From: a virus
Virus record (IMG/VR): IMGVR_UViG_3300043688_000007
DNA: 64,000 bases
Reading direction: 5' to 3' (one strand)
This document shows, in pieces, positions 3 to 63,489 of this stretch. The notes below the pieces were generated by a model, which saw nothing but the letters and a program-made list of their open reading frames with translations, had not been told where the DNA came from and made no database searches. How positions within the stretch are numbered: the first letter of the stretch is position 1; each line of letters starts with the position of its first letter. The translations under genes and the position numbers were made by a program.

Positions 3-3000
3 GGTGGGGGTGGCGGTATCATCGCTGGCATTGGTGCCCTGATTAGATCGCTCCCCGGTGGTACGTCAGGTTCTATTGCAGCTGTTCCGACCTCAGTCGG
101 CATACCGGCTGGTATTATTGCTGCGTCGGCGCTACCATTCATCGGGCAAATGCTAGCTGGTGTACCTATCGCTGCCGGAGGCGGTGCTCTAGCTGGACTA
201 GGCATCGCGGGCGCGTTCGGGATAGGCGGGACGAGCCCGCAACAGGTACAACAGGCCCGGTTGGCAAATCAGGCCGCTAACGCGCGGGTAACGGCGGCTC
301 TTGCTAGGGTCGCCCAGGCAAGAGGCGGGGGTGCCGCCGCGAGCCCTCTACAGATTCAAGCCGCTCAGGATCGGCTAGCCGCTGCACAGGCCAGGTTGGC
401 CACAGCGCGCAGTAGTGGTACGTCTGCGGCTGCAATCCTGAGCGCGGAGGCGGGGGTTGCGAGCGCGCAGGATCGAATTAACAGGCTACGCGGTACTGGC
501 AAGGTGAACACCGCTCAGCTAGCGGCGGCGGAAGCTCAGTTGGCGGGCGCTCGGGCAGCTCAGTCAAAGGCGAGTACCGCATACCATAAGGCGCAGCAGA
601 ACGAGATCACCAAGAACCAGATGGCGGCTCGCCAGGCGTTCATTGACCTGAAGAACACTGCCGTACAATCGCTGACGCAGATCGGCGCTCCTATGGCGCC
701 AGTAATGAAGCATATCGCTGATACAGCGCGGGGTGTGCTTCAAAAACTTACCCCCGTATTCAAAATAGTTGTTGCTGATATAGCCGGGCCATTCCAGACG
801 TTTGTCGATACTATTCTCAAAGCGTTTCAGGACCCGGCAACTCAGGCGGCGATCGAGGCTGTAGCAGGAGCTTTTGTAGATGTACTGAAGGCGTTTACCC
901 CTGATATCAAGGGGATAATGGATTCGTTCTCTGATGCAATCAGGCGCATCGCAGACTCTGTGGCTAAGAATCCGAAGGCGTTTGCCGACTTCTTGAACTT
1001 CGTGTTCCAGCTCGGCATTATGCTTCTAAACGCGGTCGCATACCTGTCAGACTTTGCATCGTACATCGAGCAACACTTCATTCCTGCGGTTCATCATGTC
1101 ATTAACTTCTTCAAGGGCATTGGCATTAACCTCGGAAAATTCTGGCACGCTGTCATCGACAACTTCAAACAGTCAATCGGCATCATCATCGACATACTGA
1201 AGTTTTTCCGCGACATATGGACAGGTCACTGGTCTGCGGCGGGACACGACATAGTAGACATCGGTAAGCGCTTTTGGCGTATCATTGTCAACGACTTCAA
1301 AGTTATTATCCCTGATCTACTACGCCTAATGGGCTATCTCGGTTCCCATTTGGTTAGTATTGCCAAGGGTGCGTTTGATCATCTATGGTGGCTGATCCTC
1401 AACATAGGTGACCGAGGACGTCACTCGGTAGCCAATCAGTGGGACCAGTTCCGGCATGATATGGCGACCATAGCTACCCATATTTGGCATGATATAACTG
1501 GGTTCTTTAGTTTGATGTGGCATCAAATACTCGGTGACTTCGATACGTTTAACAGAGCATATCTTGGTGCACTCAATAAGTTCAAAAACATGGTCCTGGG
1601 GTTTTTCAGGGATGCTATCAACTGGCTGTCAAGTGCTGGATCCAGTGTTATCCATGGTATGCTCAACGGTATCGACAATGCCATGAAAGATATCGGCAAC
1701 TGGGTCAAGAAGCATATCGTTAATCCGATCGTCAATTGGGTGAAGCATCACTTCGGCATCGCGTCGCCGTCGACAGTAATGATGGGGCTCGGCGTAAACC
1801 TCATCGAGGGCCTGCTTAGGGGCCTGATGAAGAACTCTGGTAACGTCGGCAAGATCGTGCTGAAGATATTCGGCTCCATCCCCAACGCGCTCGGGGCTAT
1901 TGTTGGTAAGGGCCTCATCGCCTTGGAGAAGCTACCTGCGAGCGCGATTAAGCTACTCGGTAGCGTAGGCGGCAAGATTGGCGGGTTCTTCTCGCACCTG
2001 TTCCACGGTGGCCCTGCCGGCCAAGGTGTTATGCGCTGGGCGGATCTTGTCAAGGTAGCCCTCATGCTGAACAACCTTCCCGACTCGCTCGCGGGCCGGG
2101 TACTATACCAGATGCAAACTGAAAGCGGTGGCAACCCGAACGCGATCAACCTCTGGGATATCAATGCTCAGCGTGGTGACCCGTCACGCGGATTGATGCA
2201 GGTTATTGGCTCGACGTTCGCGGCGTACCACGTACCAGGTACGTCGATGAATATCTATGATCCGCTCGCCAATATCGCTGCTGCCATCAACTACGCGAAG
2301 CATGTATACGGCCCTGGCCTTGGCGCGCTCGGCTCTGGTCACGGATATGCTGCTGGCACCGGCGGCGCTACACCTGGCTGGGCCTGGGTCGGAGAGCGTG
2401 GCCCAGAGCTAGTCAACTTTAGTGGCGGCGAGACCGTAATCCCAGCAATTAGGCTTGGAGGCTACGCTAGCGGAACATTGTCTGCGGCTGAGGCTATTGC
2501 CGCCCATAATAAGGCACTAGCTGAAGCAACGGCCGCTGCCCATCGATCGCAAGCCATGGCCATAGCGGCGGCTAACAAGATGGCTAATGCGGGCGCTACC
2601 CTCGCAGCGCGGATAGCAGCGATTACAGCCAAAACAACTCCCGCTACTTGGACAACGGACTTGAGGCTATTCTTCAAGGACCTGCGTCTCTACTTCAGCC
2701 CGAAGACTGCCGAAGCTCGGAGCAAGCTAGTCCAGTCGCAGATCAACCAGATGAAGTCGCTTCAGACGAGCATCACAAAGATGGATGCGAACATCACTAA
2801 CGCCATTGCATTCCAGAAGCAGCAGTACAGCCAGCTCCGCGCGCAGACGGGTATCGGTACGATCGGCATTCAAGGCGTCGGGGCCGCAGGCGGGCGCTCG
2901 ATCCTGGCCGGCCTACAGCGGAACCTGTCTTCGGCGCGGAGCTTCGGCCTGGCTATCCGCGACTTGTCAAGGGCTGGCGCCTCGCAGGCTGTGCTCAAGA

Positions 3001-3668
3001 CAGTAGCGGCAATGGACCCCGCGTCAGGCTCGGTCTACGCGCGCAAGATGATCAGCGCGCTGAACAAGATGCATTCGATGAAGCTCTCGCCCGAGATGAT
3101 CAACCAGCTCGTCGCGCTTGGGCCGGATGCCGCGCTCGCATATATCAACGCGATTCAGGCGGGTGGGCCATCGCTCCTGAAGCAGGTCAAGTCGACTGAG
3201 GCTGCGCTCGAAGCCGCGCGGGTGTCGACCTCGCGTGGGATAACGTCGGTTGTCTCGGGTGGCGCGTACGTTACTGGTGTTAACTTTGTGGCTGGGCTCA
3301 AGTCGCAGCAGAAAGCACTGGAGAAGCAGTTCGCCCATCTAGGCAAGGTGCTAGGCGAGGAGGCAATCAAGTGGATGGGCGTACCGTATAGCAAGCGCCC
3401 GCGCGGGTACGCTAGCGGTGGCTGGCTCAACGAGCCTGTAACCGGGTACGGCCTCTATTCGGGAGCAACGTACACATTCGCTGAGCATGGCCGAGAATAT
3501 GTCATACCCGAAGGTGGCCCGACGCGCGGAGGCGATGGTGGTACGCAGTACATCGCTCACTTCGATGGTCTAACTCGTGAGGCGATTGAGTCTCATGTTC
3601 GTACGGCATTTAATGCTATGGCCTTGACACAGGGCGCGCTACAACGGAACGGTAGGAGGTCATTATGA
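3..3668 (+). CDS. Tape measure protein, 5' end outside window, with embedded lytic transglycosylase (SLT-like) domain
   Basis: Frame is open from nt 3 (GGGGGIIAGIGAL... precedes the listed ATG at 150), so the gene enters from upstream. More than 1170 aa, with an Ala-rich coiled N part and an aromatic/hydrophobic middle. YQMQTESGGNPNAINLWDINAQRGDPSRGLMQVIGSTF resembles the SLT catalytic region. Followed by tail-tip genes. Confidence 0.9.
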   Translation, partial: GGGGGIIAGIGALIRSLPGGTSGSIAAVPTSVGIPAGIIAASALPFIGQMLAGVPIAAGGGALAGLGIAGAFGIGGTSPQQVQQARLANQAANARVTAALARVAQARGGGAAASPLQIQAAQDRLAAAQARLATARSSGTSAAAILSAEAGVASAQDRINRLRGTGKVNTAQLAAAEAQLAGARAAQSKASTAYHKAQQNEITKNQMAARQAFIDLKNTAVQSLTQIGAPMAPVMKHIADTARGVLQKLTPVFKIVVADIAGPFQTFVDTILKAFQDPATQAAIEAVAGAFVDVLKAFTPDIKGIMDSFSDAIRRIADSVAKNPKAFADFLNFVFQLGIMLLNAVAYLSDFASYIEQHFIPAVHHVINFFKGIGINLGKFWHAVIDNFKQSIGIIIDILKFFRDIWTGHWSAAGHDIVDIGKRFWRIIVNDFKVIIPDLLRLMGYLGSHLVSIAKGAFDHLWWLILNIGDRGRHSVANQWDQFRHDMATIATHIWHDITGFFSLMWHQILGDFDTFNRAYLGALNKFKNMVLGFFRDAINWLSSAGSSVIHGMLNGIDNAMKDIGNWVKKHIVNPIVNWVKHHFGIASPSTVMMGLGVNLIEGLLRGLMKNSGNVGKIVLKIFGSIPNALGAIVGKGLIALEKLPASAIKLLGSVGGKIGGFFSHLFHGGPAGQGVMRWADLVKVALMLNNLPDSLAGRVLYQMQTESGGNPNAINLWDINAQRGDPSRGLMQVIGSTFAAYHVPGTSMNIYDPLANIAAAINYAKHVYGPGLGALGSGHGYAAGTGGATPGWAWVGERGPELVNFSGGETVIPAIRLGGYASGTLSAAEAIAAHNKALAEATAAAHRSQAMAIAAANKMANAGATLAARIAAITAKTTPATWTTDLRLFFKDLRLYFSPKTAEARSKLVQSQINQMKSLQTSITKMDANITNAIAFQKQQYSQLRAQTGIGTIGIQGVGAAGGRSILAGLQRNLSSARSFGLAIRDLSRAGASQAVLKTVAAMDPASGSVYARKMISALNKMHSMKLSPEMINQLVALGPDAALAYINAIQAGGPSLLKQVKSTEAALEAARVSTSRGITSVVSGGAYVTGVNFVAGLKSQQKALEKQFAHLGKVLGEEAIKWMGVPYSKRPRGYASGGWLNEPVTGYGLYSGATYTFAEHGREYVIPEGGPTRGGDGGTQYIAHFDGLTREAIESHVRTAFNAMALTQGALQRNGRRSL

Positions 3669-4588: not shown

Positions 4589-6592
4589 TTGCCGATTCTC
4601 CCGCTTCTGCCTATAAGCCTTCCCGGTCAGGAGCTAGTAGGTTCATCATCCACTTCCTCCGGTGCTAATGGTGCCATAGTCTCGACACTTAGTATCTCTG
4701 GCTCCGCGTCGCCAGTATCGTCTGCAAGTGGCGTTCTCGGCCTGAATGCTATAGCATCCGGCTCGTCGTCTGCTGCATCAAGTGCTAATGGCAATCTCGC
4801 CGCTAAGCTTATCATTGCCGGTTCATCCTCGGCAGTATCCGCCGCTAACGGTGCTATGGCCCTTGTCGGTATACTGGCGGGATCGTCCTCTACCACGTCG
4901 AGCGCCAGCGGTTCAGTTACAAGAGTGACTCCGCTCGCGGGGTCGGCATCATCATCAAGCTCTGGCTCCGGCGCGGTAACCATACAGACCGGTCCGCAGA
5001 CATACCCTATAACTGGAACTTCGACCGCTACATCTGCGGCCAACGGCTCGGTAACGCAGATCATCATCATATCGGCTACGTCCGTACAGCTAGTGTCGGC
5101 GGCAGGGTTCATTGTTCAGTTTATCCTGATCTCCGCGTCGTCTAGCACGCCATCCTCGGCGGTCGGAAGCTTCGCCGCTGTCACCAGCATAGTTAGCGGT
5201 ACCGCGTCGAGCGCATCATCAGCGGCTGGGACCTTCAAGCCGACTGTCCTTCTCACCAGCGGTATATCTATATCTGCATCTTGGGCGCAGGGAGGTTTCA
5301 TGGGAGCTACTACCTATGACGTCAATTCACTGACGCGGAACTATTCAGCCGGTCTAGGCGCACTCCTGCCCGGTTCTGTATACGTGCCTCCATCCTCTGG
5401 TTCATACAATGAGGTATGGGTCGAGGTGCTCAACAGCAACCTTGTCAGCATGGGGCCAGTTCAGTTCATCAGTCTGACAGCCCAGCTCTATTACAATGCT
5501 GTCGGCTCCTGGACCGTAACCGTTCCGTACAGCGACGGGCTATGGAACCTTATGATGTCCGGAGATCTCATTGTCCATATAAACTGGCGCGGACTGTTTA
5601 CATTCGGCGGCAAGTGCGAGTCGCCTGGATATAATGACTCCGTACCGGGAGCGGCTAGCGGGTCCTCCGTTGCCGGACCCTATATAACCCTCTCGGGCGC
5701 GGACTATCTCGCCCTAATCGCGAACCGGATAGCTTACCCGAGCCCTGGCGCAGCATGGAACGCCCAGACGGCCGCCGCGTCGGACCCAGTTAGCAACGTT
5801 AAGCTAGAGACGGCTATCAAGCATTACGTCACTAACAACATAGGGTCCGGTACCGTAGTGGCCAGGCGTATGACGCTGCTAGATGTAGCCGCCGACCTTG
5901 GACGCGGAGTGAACGTTAGCTACACAGTCAAGTTTGGCAGCGGAGTCAACCTCAACTTGCTCGACGTTATCCGTGCTCTCATATCGCAGGCGAATACAAC
6001 GATGGGAGTCAAGATCACTCGGAACGCATCGACGCACAGGCTCACGTTCGATGTATACATTCCGCGCGACCTGACTGGCAAGGCCTGGTTCAGCGAATCA
6101 CTAGGCAACCTCACGGCTATCAATTTTAGCATACAGGACCCGACCGTGACCGACTCGCTAGTCCAGGGCTCCGGTACCACGTTTGTGCAGAGGACCGCAT
6201 CCGGACGGACGCAGTGGAACTCAGTCGAGGCGTACAGCGATAGCTCTAGCGAGACAGATATCAACAACATCAATACTACCGCGCAGGACTCGCTGCTACA
6301 AGGGGCGGCTGGGCCGACTATGAGCCTGACTGCTATCGACATACCATTCCTTACGTACGGCCGAGACTACGGACTGGGCGACAAGGTATCCGTGGAGGTC
6401 CGGCCAGGCGTAGTGTACAGCGACATAGTTACGGGCGTTACGCTAACTGCAGATCCGTCGCAGTCGCCGGAGATAACAGTCGTGCCTACTATAGGGCAAT
6501 CATCTAACCCGACCGCTACCGACCAGACCGCAATAGGCCAGCTTACCGCGAGGATTCGAAAGCTGGAGAAACTACTATCAACATCGATGTGA
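4589..6592 (+). CDS. Minor tail protein (tail-tip, Tal-like position) with N-terminal 20-residue Ser/Gly repeats
   Basis: TTG start shortly after GAGGAGG. Residues ~15-230 carry about 10 copies of h-x-G-S-S-x3-S-S-A-S/N-G-x-h, the same repeat as in 58615..62208. The C-terminal ~430 aa are globular. Confidence 0.7.
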   Translation: MPILPLLPISLPGQELVGSSSTSSGANGAIVSTLSISGSASPVSSASGVLGLNAIASGSSSAASSANGNLAAKLIIAGSSSAVSAANGAMALVGILAGSSSTTSSASGSVTRVTPLAGSASSSSSGSGAVTIQTGPQTYPITGTSTATSAANGSVTQIIIISATSVQLVSAAGFIVQFILISASSSTPSSAVGSFAAVTSIVSGTASSASSAAGTFKPTVLLTSGISISASWAQGGFMGATTYDVNSLTRNYSAGLGALLPGSVYVPPSSGSYNEVWVEVLNSNLVSMGPVQFISLTAQLYYNAVGSWTVTVPYSDGLWNLMMSGDLIVHINWRGLFTFGGKCESPGYNDSVPGAASGSSVAGPYITLSGADYLALIANRIAYPSPGAAWNAQTAAASDPVSNVKLETAIKHYVTNNIGSGTVVARRMTLLDVAADLGRGVNVSYTVKFGSGVNLNLLDVIRALISQANTTMGVKITRNASTHRLTFDVYIPRDLTGKAWFSESLGNLTAINFSIQDPTVTDSLVQGSGTTFVQRTASGRTQWNSVEAYSDSSSETDINNINTTAQDSLLQGAAGPTMSLTAIDIPFLTYGRDYGLGDKVSVEVRPGVVYSDIVTGVTLTADPSQSPEITVVPTIGQSSNPTATDQTAIGQLTARIRKLEKLLSTSM

Positions 6593-56186: not shown

Positions 56187-57081
56187 TACGACTTTCGACC
56201 GCCGACCGCAAACAGACCGGGACGCGATTAGGGGCCGCGAAAAGGCCGACCCTACCCGAGTTAGCCGAAACCGTAGTTCAAAGCCTCAGCGTGCCAGCCG
56301 TTTCGTATTCAGTGGCACGTCCGGTCCTCTCGCCGCTATCTCGCCCGACCCACCACTAGCACTAGATGCACACTTCGAGGCTGATCAGGGATCAGTCAGC
56401 GATTACGTCAAGAACGCCATCCGGGCGATGTGGGATGCGCATATAGACCCCGAGCGGTTTTCGGCAAGCTGGAAGGATCTTGGGCCGATCATCAAGATCC
56501 TTATTGCCCAGGCATATGCAGGCAGTGCCGCGAACGCTGCGGAGTATTATCGCAATCTACATGTAGTGCACGGCCTCGACTATCCAGTGGTGCGGCCTGC
56601 TGGGTTCGGGGCCGCGCACCTCAACCGGATGGCTGGTTCCGTTGCAAACGGGACCTTCTACCATCACCTGAACACGAAGGGAGAGGAACCGGGCATGGCA
56701 TCGGAAGTAGCGCGCAACACAATGTCCGGTGCCGGTGCCCGGTTCGCCCTGAACGGCGCGCGGAATACGATCACTGGCGCCGTCGCTCGGGACCCTGATG
56801 CACTAGGCTGGGAACGGCTACTCTGTCCTGGTGCGTGTTCATATTGCGCTAGTCAGGCAGCGAAGGGTCCATTCAAGCCTGGCAACACCAGCTTCCGCGC
56901 GCACGACTACTGTAGCTGTCTCGCTAAACCTGTGTTGCGCGGAGCTAACGATAGGCCGAACGCAGAACTGCGAGACCAGTGGAACCGCATAACAGAAACA
57001 TTCACCGGCAAGGAAGCGAGAGCTGCCTGGGACAAGTACTGGAGAGAACATGGCCGGGACGACGAAGACACCTCACACTGA
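56176..57081 (+). CDS. MuF-like minor capsid / head morphogenesis protein
   Basis: Follows the portal. C-terminal W-x-R...CPGACSYCAS...RAHDYCSCLAKPV Cys/His motif is typical of gp7/MuF-like proteins. Confidence 0.65.
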   Translation: MSIDTTFDRRPQTDRDAIRGREKADPTRVSRNRSSKPQRASRFVFSGTSGPLAAISPDPPLALDAHFEADQGSVSDYVKNAIRAMWDAHIDPERFSASWKDLGPIIKILIAQAYAGSAANAAEYYRNLHVVHGLDYPVVRPAGFGAAHLNRMAGSVANGTFYHHLNTKGEEPGMASEVARNTMSGAGARFALNGARNTITGAVARDPDALGWERLLCPGACSYCASQAAKGPFKPGNTSFRAHDYCSCLAKPVLRGANDRPNAELRDQWNRITETFTGKEARAAWDKYWREHGRDDEDTSH

Positions 57082-57316
57082 GACAGCGGCAGGACGCCGA
57101 GAGGCTGCTGCGAAAGGCGCGGCTCTACCGAGCAAGAGCGGTGGGGCTCCGCGTTATCCAACGCCGAACAGGGCGTACCTAGCCAAGGCCATCAAGGCCG
57201 TTGGCCGGGGAAAGGGTGATCACGCCACTATCCGGCGCTACCTGATCCGTCGTGCCAAGGCCCTGGGCGCCATGGACATGATACCCGACAGCTGGAAGTC
57301 AGATGGGAGTAACTGA
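57050..57316 (+). CDS. Hypothetical head-module protein
   Basis: PRYPTPNRAYLAKAIKAVGRGKGDHATIRRYLIRRAKALGAMDMIPDSW is a motif common in actinophage head modules (from memory). Confidence 0.5.
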   Translation: MAGTTKTPHTETAAGRREAAAKGAALPSKSGGAPRYPTPNRAYLAKAIKAVGRGKGDHATIRRYLIRRAKALGAMDMIPDSWKSDGSN

Positions 57317-57328
57317 TGGGAGGAACTG

Positions 57329-57532
57329 ATGGCGACTAGCCAGAGCAAGAGCAAGACCAAGCAGCAGGCCCAAGAGGCCAAGTCCGACGACAACGATGAT
57401 GACGAGGACGAGGAGGACGACAACGACGAGGACGACACCAGCAATATGACCCCAGCGGAGAAGCGTGAAGCAGCATTCCGGCAGCTGCTCTCGCGAAGGA
57501 AGGGAGCCAAGAAGTTATGGCAGCTCAAGTAG
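57329..57532 (+). CDS. Highly acidic small protein
   Basis: DDNDDDEDEEDDNDEDD run. 67 aa. Confidence 0.5.
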   Translation: MATSQSKSKTKQQAQEAKSDDNDDDEDEEDDNDEDDTSNMTPAEKREAAFRQLLSRRKGAKKLWQLK

Positions 57533-57768
57533 GTGCCGATTACACATATCAGCCACAGCATGGATCTGGCTTTGGGCACAATGCGCTCGGCCAGCCGCTG
57601 AGCGCGGAGATGATCGAGCTGGACCTGAAACCGGGTACCCCAGTGACGGTCCACTCCCTTGACGAGGACTCCGGCTGGCCCATCGTCGAATGGACAGACG
57701 ATAAGGGCCTGGGCCGGATGACTACGATCGAGCCGACAGAATTCGACAACGACTTCGCACCTGTTTAG
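57517..57768 (+). CDS. Hypothetical protein
   Basis: 83 aa. Overlaps the previous gene by 16 nt. Confidence 0.5.
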   Translation: MAAQVGADYTYQPQHGSGFGHNALGQPLSAEMIELDLKPGTPVTVHSLDEDSGWPIVEWTDDKGLGRMTTIEPTEFDNDFAPV

Positions 57769-57776
57769 GAGGAACA

Positions 57777-58241
57777 ATGGCACTTCTATCAGCTGGCCAA
57801 CTATTCCAGTACGCGGAACAGCAGGCCCTCAACGCTGTATTCCTGAAGGCACAAAGTCCTGCTGCCGCAGCCACGTATATGGCGCTTGACACGTCGGCTA
57901 CGTCCGGTGTGCTCAACTCGACGGCCACTACCATGGCAGACGCATCCATTCACGAGTACGCTACCGCGAGCGGGTACGCGCGTCAGAGCTATGGCCCCGT
58001 TAGCGCTACGGCAGCCAGCCCATCGCTGATCTACAATACCGGCATCCTAACCTGGGGTCCGTTCACGTCCGCGCCCGGCACATGCAACTGGGGCATTTGC
58101 TGCACGCTGGCAAGCGGTACGGCCGCGAACACCATCGCCGCCTTCCTGCTAGCGTCGAGCCGTACCCCGGCCATCGGCGACTCGCTCCAGGCTGCGGCTG
58201 GTACTGGTTCGGCGGGTGTGGGCTTCCTCTGCCAGGTCTAG
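57777..58241 (+). CDS. Hypothetical structural-module protein
   Basis: GGAGGAACA RBS. YMALDTSATSG...EYATASGYARQSY resembles a family seen near phage fiber genes (weak recall). Confidence 0.5.
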   Translation: MALLSAGQLFQYAEQQALNAVFLKAQSPAAAATYMALDTSATSGVLNSTATTMADASIHEYATASGYARQSYGPVSATAASPSLIYNTGILTWGPFTSAPGTCNWGICCTLASGTAANTIAAFLLASSRTPAIGDSLQAAAGTGSAGVGFLCQV

Positions 58242-58538
58242 ATGGCGACCATCGATATAGGTCTGGCGATCCCAGACCTCAAGATATTCGCCACCTATCC
58301 ATGCAGCGCTGTGGTGGCCCCGCCGGCACACGGTTTCGCGATTGAGTGTGGGGCCACCCCGGCTAGCATGTACCGGCGTTATTGCACGACGCCGAGTCAC
58401 GAGCGCGTGATCTGGCTGTGCCCGGTGCATGCATCGGTCGTTGCTGCCAACGCATCAATCTGTCGCGAGTGCGCGGAGATGGGAGGCGTGAGTCCTGTAA
58501 TGTTGTTCCGCCTAACAGAGCCAGTTAGGATTCCGTAA
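58242..58538 (+). CDS. Hypothetical Cys-rich protein
   Basis: 98 aa. Start directly abuts the upstream stop. Confidence 0.5.
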   Translation: MATIDIGLAIPDLKIFATYPCSAVVAPPAHGFAIECGATPASMYRRYCTTPSHERVIWLCPVHASVVAANASICRECAEMGGVSPVMLFRLTEPVRIP

Positions 58539-58614: not shown

Positions 58615-61600
58615 ATGACTAGCCCAGTAGTCACTTTCTTGAATAATGCGTCCTCGAAGGTTGCGAATACCGGCATTACTACCAATGCCGCCTCTAGGAC
58701 GTGGAGTGTTGGCGACTTCCTGGTTGCGCACGTTGCCATGGACCCTACTTCTGGGACTGTGTCCTTTGGGGCAGTGTCTAATTTTGGTGCGTGGGCCACA
58801 AGCATTGACATAGCTCAGGGATCGGGCACGTCTGGGGTACGCAGTATCGTGTCTTACTGCCAGTGCACGACTGGGTTTACTGGCACCGTGTCCGTTACCG
58901 CTACGATACCGTCAACGACTGCTAAGTCAATGAATTTGTTCGTCGCTACTGGTTGCGACACCACGACTCCAGTACGTGGTACGCAACAAATAGCTAGCGC
59001 TACTAATGCTGGCATCTCGCAAACAGTGACCGCTGGGGCTAACATTGACGCTACTGCTATGGCGTTTGGTGGTTGTGAGGGTCCAGGCGGGTCATCTAAT
59101 ATTGTCGGGACCGGTGGCTGGCCTGTTACTGGACCCCAGTCGGCGTCGACTGCCGGCACCACGGGCTCGGGCTCGGCGTCCAATATATCCAATGCGTATC
59201 AAGGCGAGTCGAATACTAATGTCGCGGCTGGCACCTCTACCGGAACGATGCAGGCCTCCATAAGTGGCGCAGCTAATGCAGTAATTCTAGTCATATTCGC
59301 CTCACCTTCTGGTAGTCCCGTTACTTATCCAGTAGCAGGATCTAGCACTTCTGTTTCCTATGCGAATGGTACCGTTACGCAGCAGATGACATTGTCCGGC
59401 TCATCTGACACTACCGGAAGTGATTCTGCTAGCGGAACATTGTCGCTAAATGCACTGGTATCTGGTACATCTGACACTACAGGAATTGATTCTGCTAGTG
59501 GTACAGTAAGTATTGTTTCGCCGAGTGCCAATGTCACCCAGGTAGGCACTCCCGCTGCAGTTACGATTCAATCGGGAAGCAACACCGGCAGCGTTACTGG
59601 CGTCTGGGGTACGGGACAGAACCGGACGGCTGGTAACTTGCTAGTCGCTAACGTTACCGCGTATGGCACTACTACTTGCGGTGTTATATCGACTCCCTCC
59701 GGATGGACGCAGCAGTATCAGATTGCCTCGGCGAACGCGCACGCTCAGGTAGCACAGTTTACTAGAGTTGCAACGGGAGGGGACGCGGCGCCAACCTTTA
59801 CCGCGACCATGACTGGCACGGCGGCCAACGAGCGGATGTCATGTTCATTGTACGAACTAACTGGAGTAGGGTCAACTCCAGTATTCACGAATGGCAACGC
59901 TACGTCAGCCGCTACTCCGATGACGGTTACTTCCGGCGCAAATGTCCCTGCGTCCGGGTACTATGGATTGTCAGTCTGGCTTGCGTCCAATACGAGTGTT
60001 ACTACCACAACGATCGGAACTGGGACTGGCTGGACCAACGTATCGGATACCGGAGCCACCTCCGCGCGGACTCACTCGCATGAGGACATTATATCCAACC
60101 CCAGCACGGGTGCTGTCCTTTCCGAGCAGTCCTCGATGACAGGTACGGTCTCGGACTTCACTGGCGGCATGCTGGTCATCGCCCCGTCTGGTGGCACTAC
60201 ATATTCATTGTCTGGATCGTCACCTGCCTCATCTAGCGCCAATGGGACGCTTGGCCTTATCGGAGCTATTGCCGGATCTGCTCCGTCCTCTAGCGCAGCG
60301 AACGGAACCGTAACACTTTCTATTCTGATCAATGCCTGGTCTTCTACGGCTAGCGCGGGCAGCGGTGCTATAGTTTCTGCAATGTCGCTATCCGGCTCGT
60401 CTGCGGCCGCTAGCTCGGCTAGCGGTACTCTCGGAACACTTGGTGCTCTAGCCGGTTCATCTACCACTACTTCATCAGCTAGTGGTGCTGTTACCTTCCA
60501 GCCGATTGTCGGCTCATCTTCTACTGTCTCGTCCGCAGCAGGCACAGTAGTTCTGATCGGCGTGGTGGCGGGGAGTTCGGTTTCCGCGAGTACAGCATCC
60601 GGTGCTGTATCTCGGTTCTCTCCGTTGACTGGGCAATCCACCACCACGCCCCAGGCTTCAGGTTCTATAGTATTGGTCGGGCTGGTGTCTGGATCCAGCT
60701 CGGCCACGGCCACCGCGTCAGGCGCTTTGGGGGCAATATCACCCACAAGCGGAACCGCTGTTGCTACTCCCGGCCCAGCCACTGGCGCGGTGGCCATCCA
60801 AATGGTTGTTGCTGGGTCCTCGATTAGCGTTTCGAGCGCGAGCGGGGTACTATCGGCTACTGGCGCGGTGACGGGCTCGGCCATCGCAGCAACCTCAGCC
60901 GCTGGGGCCGTAGTCCAGACTCTGTCCCTGTCTGGTCAGTCCGTCACCGCGTCTCACGGGGACGGCGTATTTGGCTCCGCCCTCATTTCTGGTTCGGCAG
61001 TGAGCCAGACGTCGGCCAGCGGCGTAGTCACGCAAAGCCTGATTGTGGCGGGTTCAGCGACTAGTGTATCGAGTGCTAGTGGCTCGCTGGGCGCTGTCTC
61101 GCCGCTGGCCGGCTCATCATCAACCGTAAGCGCGGGGTTCGGAACAGTAACCGCCACGCTTGTTATCAATGGTTCATCAACCACAGTCTCCACCGCGTCG
61201 GGTGCCCTCGGCAGGCTTTCGCCCGTTGCTGGTTCGTCAACCGCAATCAGCTCTGCCACCGGCGCGGTGGTAATACAGGCTGGGGCCGTAACATACCCGC
61301 TTTCTGGTACGGCCCTGGCCCAAAGCGTCGCGAATGGATCCGTGTCCCTCTTCGCGGCGTTGACTGGCACATCAAGCAACGTGTCGGCAGCGAACGGCAC
61401 GTTGAGTCTGAAGGGCGTGCTAGTCGGCAGTGCGGCGTCGGTCAGCGGTGCAACGGGCTCCATCAGCCTGACCGGCGTCGTTGCTGGTAACGCCACCTCG
61501 GTCAGCACTGCTGCGGGCTCCATTGTGCTGGCCGGGGTGGTTACCGGATCTTCATTTACGCAGAGCCAGGGCTCAGGCTGGCTGGCCGGTGGGCCGATCT

Positions 61601-62208
61601 CCGGTACATCAAGTACAGCGTCTGTGGCGTCGGGCGCGATATCAGCCCGGCTAGTCCTAGCGGGTAGCAGCGCCAGCGTTAGCCAGGGCTCTGGTAGCCT
61701 GGCTATTGTTGGTCCGGCACCGCTAATCATATCTGGATTCTCGGCAACCGTTACGACCGCAAGCGGAGCGGTCGTAACGGTTATGGTGCTCTCGGGTAGC
61801 TCGCCTAACCTCTCGTCCGCGTCGGGTAGCCTCTCGTCCCACGGAGCCCTGACGGGGACCTCCTACGCTTACCCAGCGGGCTTGGGGACGGTCGTCCTGG
61901 TCGGCGTCGTCTCGGGGCGCGCGGATAATGTGGGCAAGGCGTACGGTAACCTGTCGCTGCTCGCCCGGCTATCCGGGTCGTCCGCGACACCGAGCCGGGG
62001 CGACGGCTGGATAGGGTTGCCCATCGTCGTAGGCTCACTACCCGACGAGGTAACTGCCATCGTATGGGTCAGTAACGAACTTGGCGCGGAGCTGAGCGTA
62101 AATGTCCTGTCGGCCGCGGTCATTGCGGATAGCGCGTCTGCGTCGATTGAGGTCGATTCCGCTGGGGCTACTATCGAAACTAACGAAATCCGTGCAACGG
62201 TAACGTAG
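58615..62208 (+). CDS. Giant (1197 aa) Ser/Thr/Gly/Ala/Val-rich repeat protein: two related N-terminal globular domains + about 30 copies of a 20-residue repeat
   Basis: Domains contain GDFLVAHVAMD... and GNLLVANVTAYG... From aa ~545 the repeats follow h-h-x-G-S-S-x3-S-x-A-x-G-x-h-x-h-x-x. The ATG has no good RBS. An in-frame GTG with a strong RBS lies 18 codons upstream, but a TAG intervenes. Confidence 0.8.
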   Translation: MTSPVVTFLNNASSKVANTGITTNAASRTWSVGDFLVAHVAMDPTSGTVSFGAVSNFGAWATSIDIAQGSGTSGVRSIVSYCQCTTGFTGTVSVTATIPSTTAKSMNLFVATGCDTTTPVRGTQQIASATNAGISQTVTAGANIDATAMAFGGCEGPGGSSNIVGTGGWPVTGPQSASTAGTTGSGSASNISNAYQGESNTNVAAGTSTGTMQASISGAANAVILVIFASPSGSPVTYPVAGSSTSVSYANGTVTQQMTLSGSSDTTGSDSASGTLSLNALVSGTSDTTGIDSASGTVSIVSPSANVTQVGTPAAVTIQSGSNTGSVTGVWGTGQNRTAGNLLVANVTAYGTTTCGVISTPSGWTQQYQIASANAHAQVAQFTRVATGGDAAPTFTATMTGTAANERMSCSLYELTGVGSTPVFTNGNATSAATPMTVTSGANVPASGYYGLSVWLASNTSVTTTTIGTGTGWTNVSDTGATSARTHSHEDIISNPSTGAVLSEQSSMTGTVSDFTGGMLVIAPSGGTTYSLSGSSPASSSANGTLGLIGAIAGSAPSSSAANGTVTLSILINAWSSTASAGSGAIVSAMSLSGSSAAASSASGTLGTLGALAGSSTTTSSASGAVTFQPIVGSSSTVSSAAGTVVLIGVVAGSSVSASTASGAVSRFSPLTGQSTTTPQASGSIVLVGLVSGSSSATATASGALGAISPTSGTAVATPGPATGAVAIQMVVAGSSISVSSASGVLSATGAVTGSAIAATSAAGAVVQTLSLSGQSVTASHGDGVFGSALISGSAVSQTSASGVVTQSLIVAGSATSVSSASGSLGAVSPLAGSSSTVSAGFGTVTATLVINGSSTTVSTASGALGRLSPVAGSSTAISSATGAVVIQAGAVTYPLSGTALAQSVANGSVSLFAALTGTSSNVSAANGTLSLKGVLVGSAASVSGATGSISLTGVVAGNATSVSTAAGSIVLAGVVTGSSFTQSQGSGWLAGGPISGTSSTASVASGAISARLVLAGSSASVSQGSGSLAIVGPAPLIISGFSATVTTASGAVVTVMVLSGSSPNLSSASGSLSSHGALTGTSYAYPAGLGTVVLVGVVSGRADNVGKAYGNLSLLARLSGSSATPSRGDGWIGLPIVVGSLPDEVTAIVWVSNELGAELSVNVLSAAVIADSASASIEVDSAGATIETNEIRATVT

Positions 62209-62218
62209 GAGTGACATA

Positions 62219-62545
62219 ATGGATATGGTGGCGCTATTCTTTAAGCAGGGAGACGACATTGTCGTTACTGCTCGGTACGCTCAGATACCAGATGGGACCG
62301 GCATGACGGCCTCGTTCTACATCAAGGATGACAAGACGACGTCAGACATAGACCCGAGCGTTCTGGTATACGATAGCGATGTAGTAGCTGACCCTGAAAA
62401 CGCGGGCGCTACCTTGTCGAAGTTCACGATCCCATCCGAGGACACCCAGGTAACTGGAGCATGGTGGTGGAAGATCAGGGTCTTCGATCCATTTAGCAAT
62501 GTGAGGACCGCTAATCAAGGTCCACTTCTCATCGAGGCGGTGTAA
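62219..62545 (+). CDS. Hypothetical protein (Ig-like-looking)
   Basis: AGGAG RBS. 108 aa. Confidence 0.55.
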   Translation: MDMVALFFKQGDDIVVTARYAQIPDGTGMTASFYIKDDKTTSDIDPSVLVYDSDVVADPENAGATLSKFTIPSEDTQVTGAWWWKIRVFDPFSNVRTANQGPLLIEAV

Positions 62546-62546
62546 C

Positions 62547-62786
62547 ATGGTAGCTGGACGCGAGGTATCGCCAGAGGACGTAGAGAATACAGAACGTCTG
62601 ATGCACTACTGGGCCGAGGGTAAGGGCGCAGCCAAGATACGCTGGGGCGTTCCCGGCGACTTCGACAGATGTCGTACGCATTTGAGCAAGTACGTCGGCC
62701 CTGAGGTTATCGACGGGCTCTGCTCGAATCTACACCAGCGAGCTACCGGCGCCAGGCCAGGGCACGCACCGTCAGAGCAAAGGTGA
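62547..62786 (+). CDS. Hypothetical head-module protein
   Basis: RLMHYWAEGKGAAKIRWGVPGDFDRCRTHLSKYV...GLCSNLHQRATG is a motif common near actinophage capsid genes (from memory). Confidence 0.55.
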   Translation: MVAGREVSPEDVENTERLMHYWAEGKGAAKIRWGVPGDFDRCRTHLSKYVGPEVIDGLCSNLHQRATGARPGHAPSEQR

Positions 62787-62862: not shown

Positions 62863-63489
62863 ATGGGAATGAGCGAATCTGCAGTCGAAGGACAAGTTGG
62901 CGACACCGGAGTGGCTGAGTCTACCGGTGTTGATGCTGCAGGCCACCCTGAAGACCAGGAGGCCGAAGAGCAGCTTCACGAGGTCATGCAAGCTGAGGAC
63001 CCCGACGAACTGAAGAAGCAGCTAAACCACTGGCGCAAGACAGCCCAGCGGCACGAGAAGACCGCTCGGGAGAATGCTGCCGCAGCCAAAAGTTGGCGCG
63101 AGCAGGAGGATGCCAACAAGTCCGAACTACAGAAGGCGCAAGAGGCCCGGCTAGCTGCTGAACAAGAGCGAGATGCCTTGGCAACTCAGCAGAACCGGAT
63201 GCTCGCTGCCGCCGCGAATGACCTGTCACCCGACCTGATCGAGTACCTTGGCGATGGAAACGCTGAGGAGATCAATGATCGGGCAGCAACACTGGCCAGG
63301 CTCATTGAGGAAGAAGTCACCAGCAGGATCGAATCGCGCTCGAAGTCAACAGCGGGAAATGGTCGTCCGACCGTGCGTCAGCAGACACCTGTCGGCTCCC
63401 TCCGGGCTGGAGCGCAACCGTCCACTGGCGCCAACCTTTTGGGTCCTGAGCAGTTGTTCCGGCAGCTCGTTACCGGAGACGACAGCTAG
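62863..63489 (+). CDS. Capsid scaffolding protein
   Basis: Acidic N part, long coiled-coil (QKAQEARLAAEQERDALATQQNRM). Directly upstream of the capsid gene. ATG 62869 has better RBS spacing. Confidence 0.7.
   Translation: MGMSESAVEGQVGDTGVAESTGVDAAGHPEDQEAEEQLHEVMQAEDPDELKKQLNHWRKTAQRHEKTARENAAAAKSWREQEDANKSELQKAQEARLAAEQERDALATQQNRMLAAAANDLSPDLIEYLGDGNAEEINDRAATLARLIEEEVTSRIESRSKSTAGNGRPTVRQQTPVGSLRAGAQPSTGANLLGPEQLFRQLVTGDDS

Follow-up and report, generated by a model that had tools for sequence, protein, structure and literature searches.

The open reading frame (ORF) at 58615..62208 (+ strand) of the viral DNA analysed here (64,000 nucleotides, IMG/VR record IMGVR_UViG_3300043688_000007; the whole stretch is called the window below) encodes a giant protein, which our results support as a fibre-type virion protein built on a repeat family that has no Pfam, PHROG or PDB entry. 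We give an even chance to a more specific proposal, namely that the giant protein is the backbone of an accessory composite virion fibre, in which the repeat array would be the rope for Gp80-like beads, with the N-terminal domains lying distally and the C-terminus acting as the anchor. Such a fibre would most likely be a much enlarged, re-anchored version of a type known to date from phages GP4, Bas63 and Sf14 only. The link to these rope-and-beads fibres, and with it the more specific mechanism, comes from a neighbouring Gp80-family gene that a preliminary description of the window had missed.

We analysed the organization of the giant protein. The ORF is intact; it starts with ATG and encodes the 1197 aa described before, and homologues of the same architecture are present in metagenomes. 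Its N-terminal part contains two beta-sandwich domains, accompanied by 3 + 30 twenty-residue units and, at the C-terminus, a conserved tail. Among the sense-strand ORFs of the window, only this one and one other show periodicity at lag 20: identity autocorrelation has its maxima at lags 20 and 40 over aa 520-1130, and BLOSUM autocorrelation of aa 532-1138 against shuffled sequences gave z = 13.3 at lag 20. This main array (60208..62028, +) was parsed into 30 units, in agreement with the initial count of about 30 consecutive ones, and three more units, opening with the motif ...PVTYPVAGSS..., form a short array at aa 231-300 (59305..59514, +). Most units are exactly 20 aa long, a few have 19, 21 or 24, and one, at aa 871-895, is a 25-residue variant. 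The consensus is [LIV]-x-G-[ST]-[SA]-x-x-x-S-x-A-x-G-x-[LIV]-x-L-x-x-x, where Gly is near-invariant at positions 3 and 13 (4 and 14 in the register in which their conservation was originally noted). The giant protein is rich in Ser, Ala, Gly and Thr, and charged residues make up about 1.4% of the array.

The repeat was not recognised in the preliminary description, and our searches bore this out: there was no match in Pfam, PHROGs or PDB sequences, and a repeat profile run against the PDB found nothing at E≤10. The same profile matched only 69 clusters among 1.84 billion proteins; even if the rope proposal is wrong, the repeat is a rare family without a database entry. The solved repeats of trimeric fibres (triple beta-helix, triple beta-spiral and collagen) have periods of 8, 15 and 3 residues, rather than 20, and gave no sequence match; the AlphaFold2 model of the array was too poor for a fold search. 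Confidence in this monomer model is low (pLDDT 42.7); it contains only two strands per unit and yields no fold assignment. Thus, of the original suggestion of a regular beta-solenoid or fibre, the fibre part stands, whereas a self-standing beta-solenoid is unsupported.

The globular parts of the protein lack the repeat; no periodicity was found in domains A and B by BLOSUM autocorrelation against shuffles. Domain A (aa 1-230; 58615..59304, +), a globular all-beta module, is shared with three other proteins (P0004, P0002 and P0001) at 40-51% identity. The two N-terminal domains, reported as mutually similar, are indeed related but only weakly (31% over 117 aa, BLASTP E 2e-4). Domain B (aa 301-531; 59515..60207, +) is predicted by AlphaFold2 to be a 13-strand beta-sandwich (pLDDT 83.8). 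We found no fold match to it in the PDB below E 1e-3; in BFVD, a library of predicted viral structures, Foldseek returned 70 matches (E<1e-3, TM 0.55-0.74). These include actinophage ‘minor tail proteins', whose beta-sandwich has no Pfam family and is similar in fold to domain B; among the phages matched are the Mycobacterium phages Hawkeye, Shauna1, Tweety and PP and the Microbacterium phage ValentiniPuff. In relatives, domain B lies N-terminal to PhoD, pectate-lyase-like and Apiosidase modules. The C-terminal module (aa 1139-1197; 62029..62205, +), our proposed anchor, reads ...GSLPDEVTAIVWV... followed by short beta-strand repeats ending ...IRATVT. It is kept in at least 15 family members and is disordered in the AlphaFold2 monomer model.

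The repeat is not confined to the giant protein. The tail protein at 4589..6592 (+; 667 aa) had been noted to carry about 10 copies, and we located these at aa 16-221 (nt 4634-5251; z = 9.3 at lag 20, BLOSUM autocorrelation against shuffles), fused to a Sipho_Gp37 domain (PF14594; aa 278-636, nt 5420-6496; E 1e-29, 103.7 bits against a gathering cut-off of 26.2). The protein thus belongs to the Sipho_Gp37 minor tail proteins of the tail tip; phrog_538, ‘minor tail protein', also matches it (E 8e-37). Over 202 aa, its residues 16-216 align colinearly with aa 772-970 of the giant protein at 43.6% identity (E 4e-26). The interrupting motif said to be shared by the two proteins is in register in both (position 135 in the tail protein, 890 in the giant), but it is not private to them: it is a 25-residue variant unit found family-wide, which also marks the starts of arrays after globular domains. 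The nucleotide sequences are diverged, as stated before: the best alignment that blastn gave for the two genes covers 51 nt at 76%, and Tandem Repeats Finder detected no array in the DNA. These comparisons support an old, diverged module common to the two proteins. Most lineage relatives of the tail protein, which are about 430 aa long, lack the N-terminal extension. The giant protein, in turn, shows no similarity to Sipho_Gp37, either as a whole or in its conserved C-terminal part.

Two genes upstream of the giant lies an ORF for 154 aa (57777..58241, +) that we propose to encode the bead. Its match to Pfam PF23140 (E 6.5e-6, 26.9 bits) falls just under the gathering cut-off of 27. Orthologues in five related loci (L002, L004, L005, L008 and L009) match PF23140 as well, and in hhalign the lineage profile aligned to canonical Gp80 with a probability of 89.9% (E 1.7e-6, 118 columns). 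One protein, L023_117, bridges the two groups, being matched by both the canonical and the lineage HMMs. When run on 1464 six-frame ORFs, the canonical Gp80 HMM selected only ORFs beside giants; the lineage profile found no match in the PDB. Judged from these profile comparisons, the 154-aa protein is a member of the Gp80 family, which includes GP4 Fiber-I and the Bas63 whisker, and would be the bead gene of a rope-and-beads fibre. Between the window and L002 the Gp80-like protein is 79% identical, versus 36% for the giant, and its gene has a strong AGGAGG ribosome-binding site, much stronger than that of the giant. Relatives without the giant retain the Gp80-like gene, and in two such phages (L053/L104 and L069/L091) the tail protein has no array in the regions examined. 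The bead may therefore be independent of these ropes, or another rope may be encoded elsewhere.

We looked for the repeat together with Gp80, and with the collar or adaptor protein Gp77, in other phages. The repeat profile matched P0079 (E 6.4e-4 against 1.84e9 proteins), encoded on the contig of a Mu-like myophage. Its array of about 160 aa (about 8 unit lengths, with 6 core-motif matches) is followed by a C-terminal Gp77 domain (aa 198-280, E 1e-19), and the next gene encodes Gp80 (E 1e-29). By way of P0079, the repeat is homologous to a rope fused to a Gp77 collar domain. A third lineage is represented by P0036 (repeat profile E 9e-13), which has a Gp80 gene directly upstream, between the capsid and tail-tube genes; no adjoining Gp80 gene was detected for P0040. 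The order is the same, domains, units and then a C-terminal anchor, in P0079, in the window's tail protein and in L076, where two B-like domains precede 6-8 core-motif units and Sipho_Gp37 comes last.

The periodicity itself extends further than the sequence family. In 7/7 unrelated loci carrying Gp77 there is a single ORF periodic at lag 20, beside or one gene away from Gp77/Gp80: P0079, GP4 gp79, Gardann gp24, PBC5 orf12, the 625-aa protein of Mae-JY28, Aegeus gp25 and Itty13 gp15. Six of these ORFs had z values of 5.4-9.2 at lag 20 and that of Itty13 one of 3.9, against a 95th percentile of 2.5 among 260 ORFs. Several share the layout of the giant (N-terminal domain, array, short-strand C-terminal tail). 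The repeat profile showed no significant sequence similarity to GP4 gp79 or the other periodic ORFs, and the sequence-level links of the repeat to Gp77/Gp80 systems are P0079 and P0036 only. No Gp77 (PF23148) was matched in the six-frame translation of the window, which does not contain the connector and tail-tube genes, or in 11 related loci, including L023 and L009, the latter covering the head to the tape-measure genes.

In Bas63 and GP4, dimers of the Gp80 family are wrapped around an extended rope as beads are strung, and their incomplete sandwiches are completed by it; a longer rope holds more dimers (PMC12609058). On the model of the Bas63 collar rope with its whisker dimers and the GP4 rope with its Fiber-1 dimers, each unit of the giant, with its two predicted short strands, would be a docking site completing the open beta-sandwich of one Gp80-like subunit. 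At one subunit per unit, about 33 units would carry about 16 dimers, and the number of units would set the length of the fibre. The suggestion that the repeat number changes is borne out by relatives, which have about 15 to 37 units. The C-terminal module would anchor the fibre to the particle, probably at the head or neck because of the position of the gene, and, as no Gp77 adaptor is detectable, would take over the adaptor role. Domains A and B would form the distal, host-facing end, where relatives have glycosidase-, phosphoesterase- or lectin-like modules instead. The tail-tip protein may be a second, shorter rope using the same bead protein. We also counted as hints of a rope the low charge of the array, its low-confidence monomer fold and the higher conservation and stronger ribosome-binding site of the bead gene.

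The proposed fibre differs in several respects from those already known. The Fiber-I complex of the Ralstonia podophage GP4 (PDB 8JOU, with 10 gp80 chains) consists of the gp77 adaptor, a rope protein and gp80 Fiber-1 dimers. We infer that this rope is gp79, which is absent from PDB sequences; it is periodic at 20 residues (z 6.3 at lag 20) and, as in the window, is encoded near the Gp80-family gene. Scaling of bead number with rope length, a feature of GP4, would be common to both systems. However, the array of the giant is about 3 times longer (33 units versus about 11), has no detectable sequence similarity to that of GP4, is fused to two globular N-terminal domains and has no Gp77 adaptor that we could find; its phage is a siphophage, with the genes placed between those for the MuF-like and scaffold proteins. 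The collar-whisker assembly of the Felixounavirus myophages Bas63 and Sf14 (PMC12609058) likewise has the rope N-terminal to the anchor and beads of the Gp80 structural family, and the role proposed for the giant, accessory adhesion or anchoring, is the same. The Bas63 rope, however, is a short N-terminal extension of an Ig-like collar and carries 2 dimers, whereas the giant has a different C-terminal anchor module, 33 units and added distal domains. Also comparable are the trios of the cluster L mycobacteriophages, for example Gardann gp22 (Gp77), gp23 (Gp80, annotated ‘head protein') and gp24 (‘minor tail protein'), also from an actinophage and with the Gp80 gene adjoining a large protein. 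Like the giant, Gardann gp24 combines a domain at the N-terminus with an array, here of about 13 twenty-residue units, and ends in a short-strand tail, but neither its units nor its N-terminal domain (compared with domain B) show sequence similarity to those of the giant; this trio, unlike our system, includes Gp77 and sits among tail genes, and gp24 adds a Gly_rich_2 domain. The classical head and neck fibres and decorations (T4 Hoc and Wac, phi29 gp8.5, SPP1 gp12) are also accessory, dispensable surface appendages whose genes lie in or near the head module, and some uncultured members of the giant's lineage have lost its gene or keep a truncated one; the giant, however, has no Ig, coiled-coil or collagen repeats and no Pfam or PDB sequence match.

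Alternatively, though we think it less likely, the giant could be a self-sufficient homo-oligomeric (probably trimeric) beta fibre or head decoration with units stacked as beta-hairpins, and the Gp80-like protein merely a co-encoded whisker or adaptor. Phage fibre shafts typically have long beta repeats punctuated by Gly, and the two strands per unit of the model would fit such a shaft, as would the persistence of the Gp80-like gene in giant-less relatives with no array in the regions examined, the dissimilarity of the other candidate ropes to the repeat and the absence of Gp77. However, a nearly uncharged array would be odd for an exposed shaft, and the monomer model is of low confidence. Moreover, repeat and Gp80 are paired in three separate lineages, in one of which the repeat is fused to Gp77, and 20-residue periodicity accompanies the Gp77/Gp80 genes in all seven unrelated phages.

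The position of the gene bears on a second alternative, a side fibre or depolymerase-type ‘minor tail protein' that uses domains A/B or the C-terminus to attach to the baseplate or tail tip. The fold of domain B, the location of B-like domains N-terminal to enzyme modules (like the anchor domains of tailspikes), the same units in the tail-tip protein and the cluster L trio among tail genes all point that way. Yet in 8/8 lineage loci inspected one gene at a time (L002-L009), and in most IMG/VR loci that extend far enough downstream, the giant gene sits between the MuF-like and scaffold genes; conservation of the giant is in its C-terminal part, which does not resemble Sipho_Gp37; and the homologous system of GP4 and Bas63 sits at the neck. 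We therefore consider tail attachment improbable. Still more remote is a non-virion product made during infection, either a protein rich in Ser/Thr that is secreted or placed on the cell surface or a scaffold for glycosylation, as the composition and a methyltransferase-like gene inserted beside the giant of one relative might suggest, because the gene is embedded in a structural module, its domains and repeats are common to a bona fide tail-tip protein, and relatives carry fusions of the depolymerase or receptor-binding-protein type.

More tentatively than the rope itself, we suggest a general scheme in which one Gp80-like bead polymerises on interchangeable ropes of 20-residue units, grafted to varied anchors (the head-module C-terminal module, the tail-tip Sipho_Gp37 hub or the Gp77 collar) and distal payloads (beta-sandwich, glycosidase, phosphoesterase or lectin modules). 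The result would be length-programmable composite fibres, with the 20-residue period as the signature of the rope in sipho-, myo- and podophages; of the Gp77/Gp80 systems that we examined, the giant would have the longest rope, with 33 units. Should the rope reading be true, a fibre known from three structures (GP4, Bas63 and Sf14) would become a widespread modular system reaching actinophages, cyanophages and Mu-like phages, whose rope could be extended to about three times its length, joined to enzymatic or binding heads and anchored anew in the absence of the Gp77 collar. It could then be recognised from sequence as a 20-residue-periodic protein adjoining a PF23140 gene, an annotation rule applicable to many ‘hypothetical' or ‘minor tail' proteins, such as cluster L gp22-gp24, and would offer a way to test how host range is set by accessory fibres.

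The giant and Gp80-like genes are part of a larger cassette. The MuF-like and scaffold/capsid genes were said normally to abut, which is true of the cultured relatives: scaffold or capsid genes directly follow the post-portal gene in Arthrobacter phage Emotion and Streptomyces phage Shaeky, and the cassette is absent from cultured relatives. It is not, however, a sporadic insertion, as it is conserved across a large uncultured lineage, recurring in dozens of relatives from soil metagenomes. The cassette includes small conserved ORFs of 88 aa (57050-57316) and 83 aa (57517-57768; both +), which have orthologues in L002 and no Pfam or PHROG family match. A Cys-rich protein of 98 aa (58242..58538, +), for which a family match was sought and not found, has orthologues (46-53% identical) in L002, L003 and others. 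Directly after the giant there is always a 108-aa protein (62219..62545, +; conserved in 9 loci), which was negative against the Gp77 profile in hhalign. Between it and the scaffold gene lies a 79-aa protein of phrog_6439 (62547..62786, +; E 8e-29), whose orthologues are 73-80% identical.

The head-gene module of the window contains an intact ORF of 1197 aa with an ATG start (58615..62208, + strand; hereafter the giant). It is composed of domain A (aa 1-230), three 20-residue units (aa 231-300), domain B (aa 301-531), a main array of thirty units (aa 532-1138), mostly of 20 aa with a few of 19, 21 or 24, and a C-terminal tail (aa 1139-1197); a single 25-residue variant unit lies within the main array (aa 871-895). 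The unit consensus is [LIV]xG[ST][SA]xxxSxAxGx[LIV]xLxxx, with Gly near-invariant at positions 3 and 13. The preliminary description of a large 20-residue-repeat ORF in the head module was borne out, as lag-20 BLOSUM autocorrelation of the main array lay 13.3 SD above that of shuffled sequences. The same analysis revealed no lag-20 periodicity in domains A and B, and the mutual similarity attributed to these domains, though detectable, is weak (E 2e-4). Across 337 window ORFs, from either strand, periodicity was confined to the giant, a tail protein (4589..6592, 667 aa; +9.3 SD at aa 16-221) and their antisense shadows. The antisense ORFs opposite the arrays (60072..60884, 60954..61730 and 4627..5112, all on the - strand; 270, 258 and 161 aa) are 20-residue periodic too (z 5.5-9.6); we rejected them as genes, since they look like shadows of a stop-poor periodic coding strand.

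The N-terminus of the tail protein aligned colinearly with aa 772-970 of the giant (43.6% identity over 202 aa, E 4e-26), confirming that the repeat is common to the giant and a tail-tip protein. The 25-residue units of the two proteins fall in register in this alignment, as expected from the 'interrupting motif' they had been said to share; this motif is, however, a variant unit found family-wide (..(I/V)(Q/H)xGxxT(Y/W)P.xG(S/T)..), which also opens arrays immediately after globular domains. The nucleotide divergence of the two arrays likewise held: Tandem Repeats Finder detected no array, and blastn between the two genes gave at best 51 nt at 76%. Pfam assigns the tail protein's C-terminal two thirds to Sipho_Gp37 ('minor tail protein'). 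In related phages the tail-tip Sipho_Gp37 protein ranges from ~430 aa, with no N-terminal extension, up to 1445 aa (loci L076, L082, L100 and L102); in L076 (1851..4766) the extension comprises two domain-B-like modules and 6-8 core-motif units ahead of Sipho_Gp37. This variation in size and N-terminal extension makes the tail tip a second hot spot for module swapping. Most tail proteins of the lineage are without the array.

The giant and its repeat were without match in Pfam, PHROGs and PDB sequences, in agreement with the earlier failure to recognise the repeat. Megablast and tblastn of the giant against cultured phages also gave no match, possibly an effect of low-complexity filtering. A two-unit repeat profile run against 1.84 billion representative proteins returned 69 matches only, 29 of them below 1e-10; judged from these sequences, the repeat family is real but rare. 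Its members (P0015-P0081) carry Laminin_G_3, Apiosidase with collagen-binding, Metallophos or Sipho_Gp37 domains, and Gp77 (the PF23148 collar/adaptor family) once. At least 15 members conserve a C-terminal module with the motif ...GDGW..PPF.aGaLPd.ITAIV.V..., after which come short strands, varying in number and usually ending in AEVT. Domain B was confidently predicted to fold as a 13-strand beta-sandwich (pLDDT 83.8). A fold search of the PDB gave no significant neighbour for it (noise only, TM below 0.3); BFVD, a set of predicted viral structures, yielded 70 neighbours, including several actinophage 'minor tail proteins'. In repeat-free proteins domain B is N-terminal to PhoD-like, pectate-lyase-like or Apiosidase modules.

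The window is a permuted slice of a ~69.7-kb JGI/IMG metagenome contig from an uncultured phage, as it opens in the tape-measure gene (150..3668) and closes just past the scaffold gene (62863..63489), with the major capsid, connector and tail-tube genes falling outside it. No tRNA genes were found within its 64 kb. The portals of Curtobacterium, Arthrobacter and Streptomyces phages match that of the window with no more than 39% identity, and in these cultured relatives the MuF-like gene does abut the scaffold/capsid genes, as previously proposed. In the uncultured lineage the intervening block is kept whole, in the order portal, MuF-like (VG15), ~86 aa, ~80 aa, Gp80-like (~154 aa), Cys-rich (~95 aa), an optional 180-200-aa gene, giant, ~108 aa, ~80 aa, scaffold and major capsid protein; this order was read in related loci L002-L009 and in most of the 51 loci that the Gp80-like protein retrieved from IMG/VR. 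Identity between the window and L002 is 66% for the portal, 79% for the Gp80-like protein and 73% for a 79-aa protein; for the giant it is 36%, across half its length. Repeat number varies among relatives, orthologous giants having ~15 to ~37 units. One locus, L050 (7303..7662), keeps a 119-aa remnant with five units and without the C-terminal module, and six others (L053, L059, L063, L069, L072 and L073) lack the giant altogether. Repeated loss of the giant has thus left the Gp80-like gene in place, and these losses, together with the L050 remnant, mark the giant as an accessory gene. That it encodes a real fibre protein of the virion, accessory and made from a rare 20-residue repeat with no filed family, is very probable and, in our view, well supported.

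The preliminary description missed a lead next to the giant, the Gp80-like gene (57777..58241, 154 aa). Its product scores 26.9 bits against Pfam PF23140 ('Podophage GP4 fiber I protein gp80'; cut-off 27), and its orthologues also match this family. A profile of the lineage aligned end to end with a canonical Gp80 profile (GP4 gp80, Gardann gp23, L013, Aegeus gp24 and Itty13 gp16) with 89.9% probability and E 1.7e-6, and a bridging sequence, L023_117, matched both the canonical and lineage HMMs. When applied to 1464 six-frame ORFs, the canonical HMM picked the Gp80-like ORFs alone. PDB sequence searches with the Gp80-like protein, its lineage profile, the domain B profile and the repeat profile were all empty, and the Gp80-like gene had no prophage relatives among GTDB representative genomes.

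Gp80-family dimers are known to wrap an extended 'rope' polypeptide like beads on a string, the rope completing their incomplete sandwiches; in phage Bas63 the rope is an N-terminal extension of the Ig-like collar, and in GP4 it is a separate protein, the longer GP4 rope carrying five dimers and that of Bas63 two (PMC12609058). The five GP4 dimers agree with the 10 gp80 chains in PDB 8JOU. Neither GP4 gp78 nor gp79 is among the PDB sequences, and gp79 has no Pfam family; we infer that gp79 is the GP4 rope protein. The gp79 gene (L015 2206..3183, 325 aa) adjoins gp80 and encodes ~11 units of ~20 residues (lag-20 z 6.3, lag-10 z 4.7), a number that matches the 10 gp80 chains.

Two matches to our repeat profile link the giant's repeat to such ropes. 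In P0079, a ~160-aa array (~8 unit lengths) with 6 core-motif matches precedes a Gp77 collar domain at the C-terminus (E 1e-19), which is the layout of the Bas63 collar, and the gene that comes next on this Mu-like contig encodes Gp80 (E 1e-29). P0036 (E 9e-13), from a third kind of phage, is preceded by a Gp80 gene and lies between capsid and tail-tube genes. In addition, lag-20 periodicity was measured for all + strand ORFs of 80 aa or longer in seven loci from unrelated Gp77-carrying phages. One ORF stood out in each locus, with z 3.9 in Itty13 and 5.4-9.2 in the other six, against a 95th percentile of z 2.5 for 260 ORFs: P0079, GP4 gp79, Gardann gp24, PBC5 orf12, a 625-aa protein of Microcystis phage Mae-JY28, Aegeus gp25 and Itty13 gp15. 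All are next to Gp77/Gp80 or one gene away. Three of them, from Mae-JY28, Gardann and Aegeus, resemble the giant in having an N-terminal domain, an array and a short-strand C-terminal tail; domain B showed no similarity to the N-terminus of Gardann gp24. In cluster L mycobacteriophages the Gp77, Gp80 and periodic genes form a trio in the tail module (Gardann L016 6968..9997; Aegeus L019 5950..8361), consisting in Gardann of gp22 (Gp77, E 1e-28), gp23 (Gp80, E 8e-30; annotated 'head protein') and the periodic gp24 ('minor tail protein'); present annotations miss this trio.

The best-supported reading, to which we give an even chance on these sequence comparisons, is that the array acts as a rope for Gp80-like beads. 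The N-terminal domains would then form the distal end of the fibre and the C-terminal module would be an anchor independent of Gp77. The polarity is constant, units being N-terminal to the anchor in P0079, the window tail protein and L076. Other features hint at a segment that is buried and depends on a partner, and at a bead present in many copies: only ~1.4% of array residues are charged, the AlphaFold2 monomer of aa 995-1197 has low-confidence strand pairs (pLDDT 42.7), and the ribosome-binding site is AGGAGG for the Gp80-like gene and weak for the giant. Of the features defining the GP4/Bas63 fibres, two are present for the giant: a gene for the bead, and homology of its repeat to a rope fused to a collar. 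Two others, one rope segment per bead and physical threading of the rope, are predicted for the giant on the rope reading. As to a further one, the Gp77 adaptor, searches of the window and of related loci covering the head-to-tape-measure genes revealed no Gp77-like gene, which argues against a rope, as does the persistence of the Gp80-like gene in giant-less relatives. Moreover, the repeat profile had no significant similarity to GP4 gp79 or the other periodic ORFs, and, P0079 and P0036 excepted, the candidate ropes resemble the giant in periodicity and context alone. The 151-aa neighbour of another profile match, P0040, is not detectably Gp80. The main rival, that the giant is a self-standing oligomeric shaft, we consider less likely. 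A prediction that giant-less relatives carry the array on the tail protein was not supported in either of the two phages with a readable tail protein. The 108-aa neighbour of the giant was ruled out as a Gp77 analogue by hhalign (twice) and Pfam.

Several smaller genes accompany the giant. Every relative encodes, after the Gp80-like gene and before the giant, a Cys-rich protein (98 aa in the window, ...CPVHA...ICRECA...; 58242..58538, + strand) with 46-53% identity and no family match, possibly a small assembly factor that binds zinc. A putative 67-aa gene (57329..57532, + strand) encodes the extremely acidic run DDNDDDEDEEDDNDEDD and has no counterpart in L002 by tblastn. In some relatives a further gene follows the Cys-rich gene, ahead of the giant (L008 2261..2800, L004 2923..3525, L007 737..1339), and may modify the fibre; it is methyltransferase-like in L008 (Methyltransf_11, E 1e-5) and encodes a 200-aa protein with no family match in L004, L005 and L007. 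The 79-aa protein (62547..62786, + strand; phrog_6439, E 8e-29) is, at 73-80% identity, the most conserved in the block after the Gp80-like protein. It also matches positions 1215-1283 of the 1668-position profile phrog_21406, which places its motif within much larger phage proteins as well.
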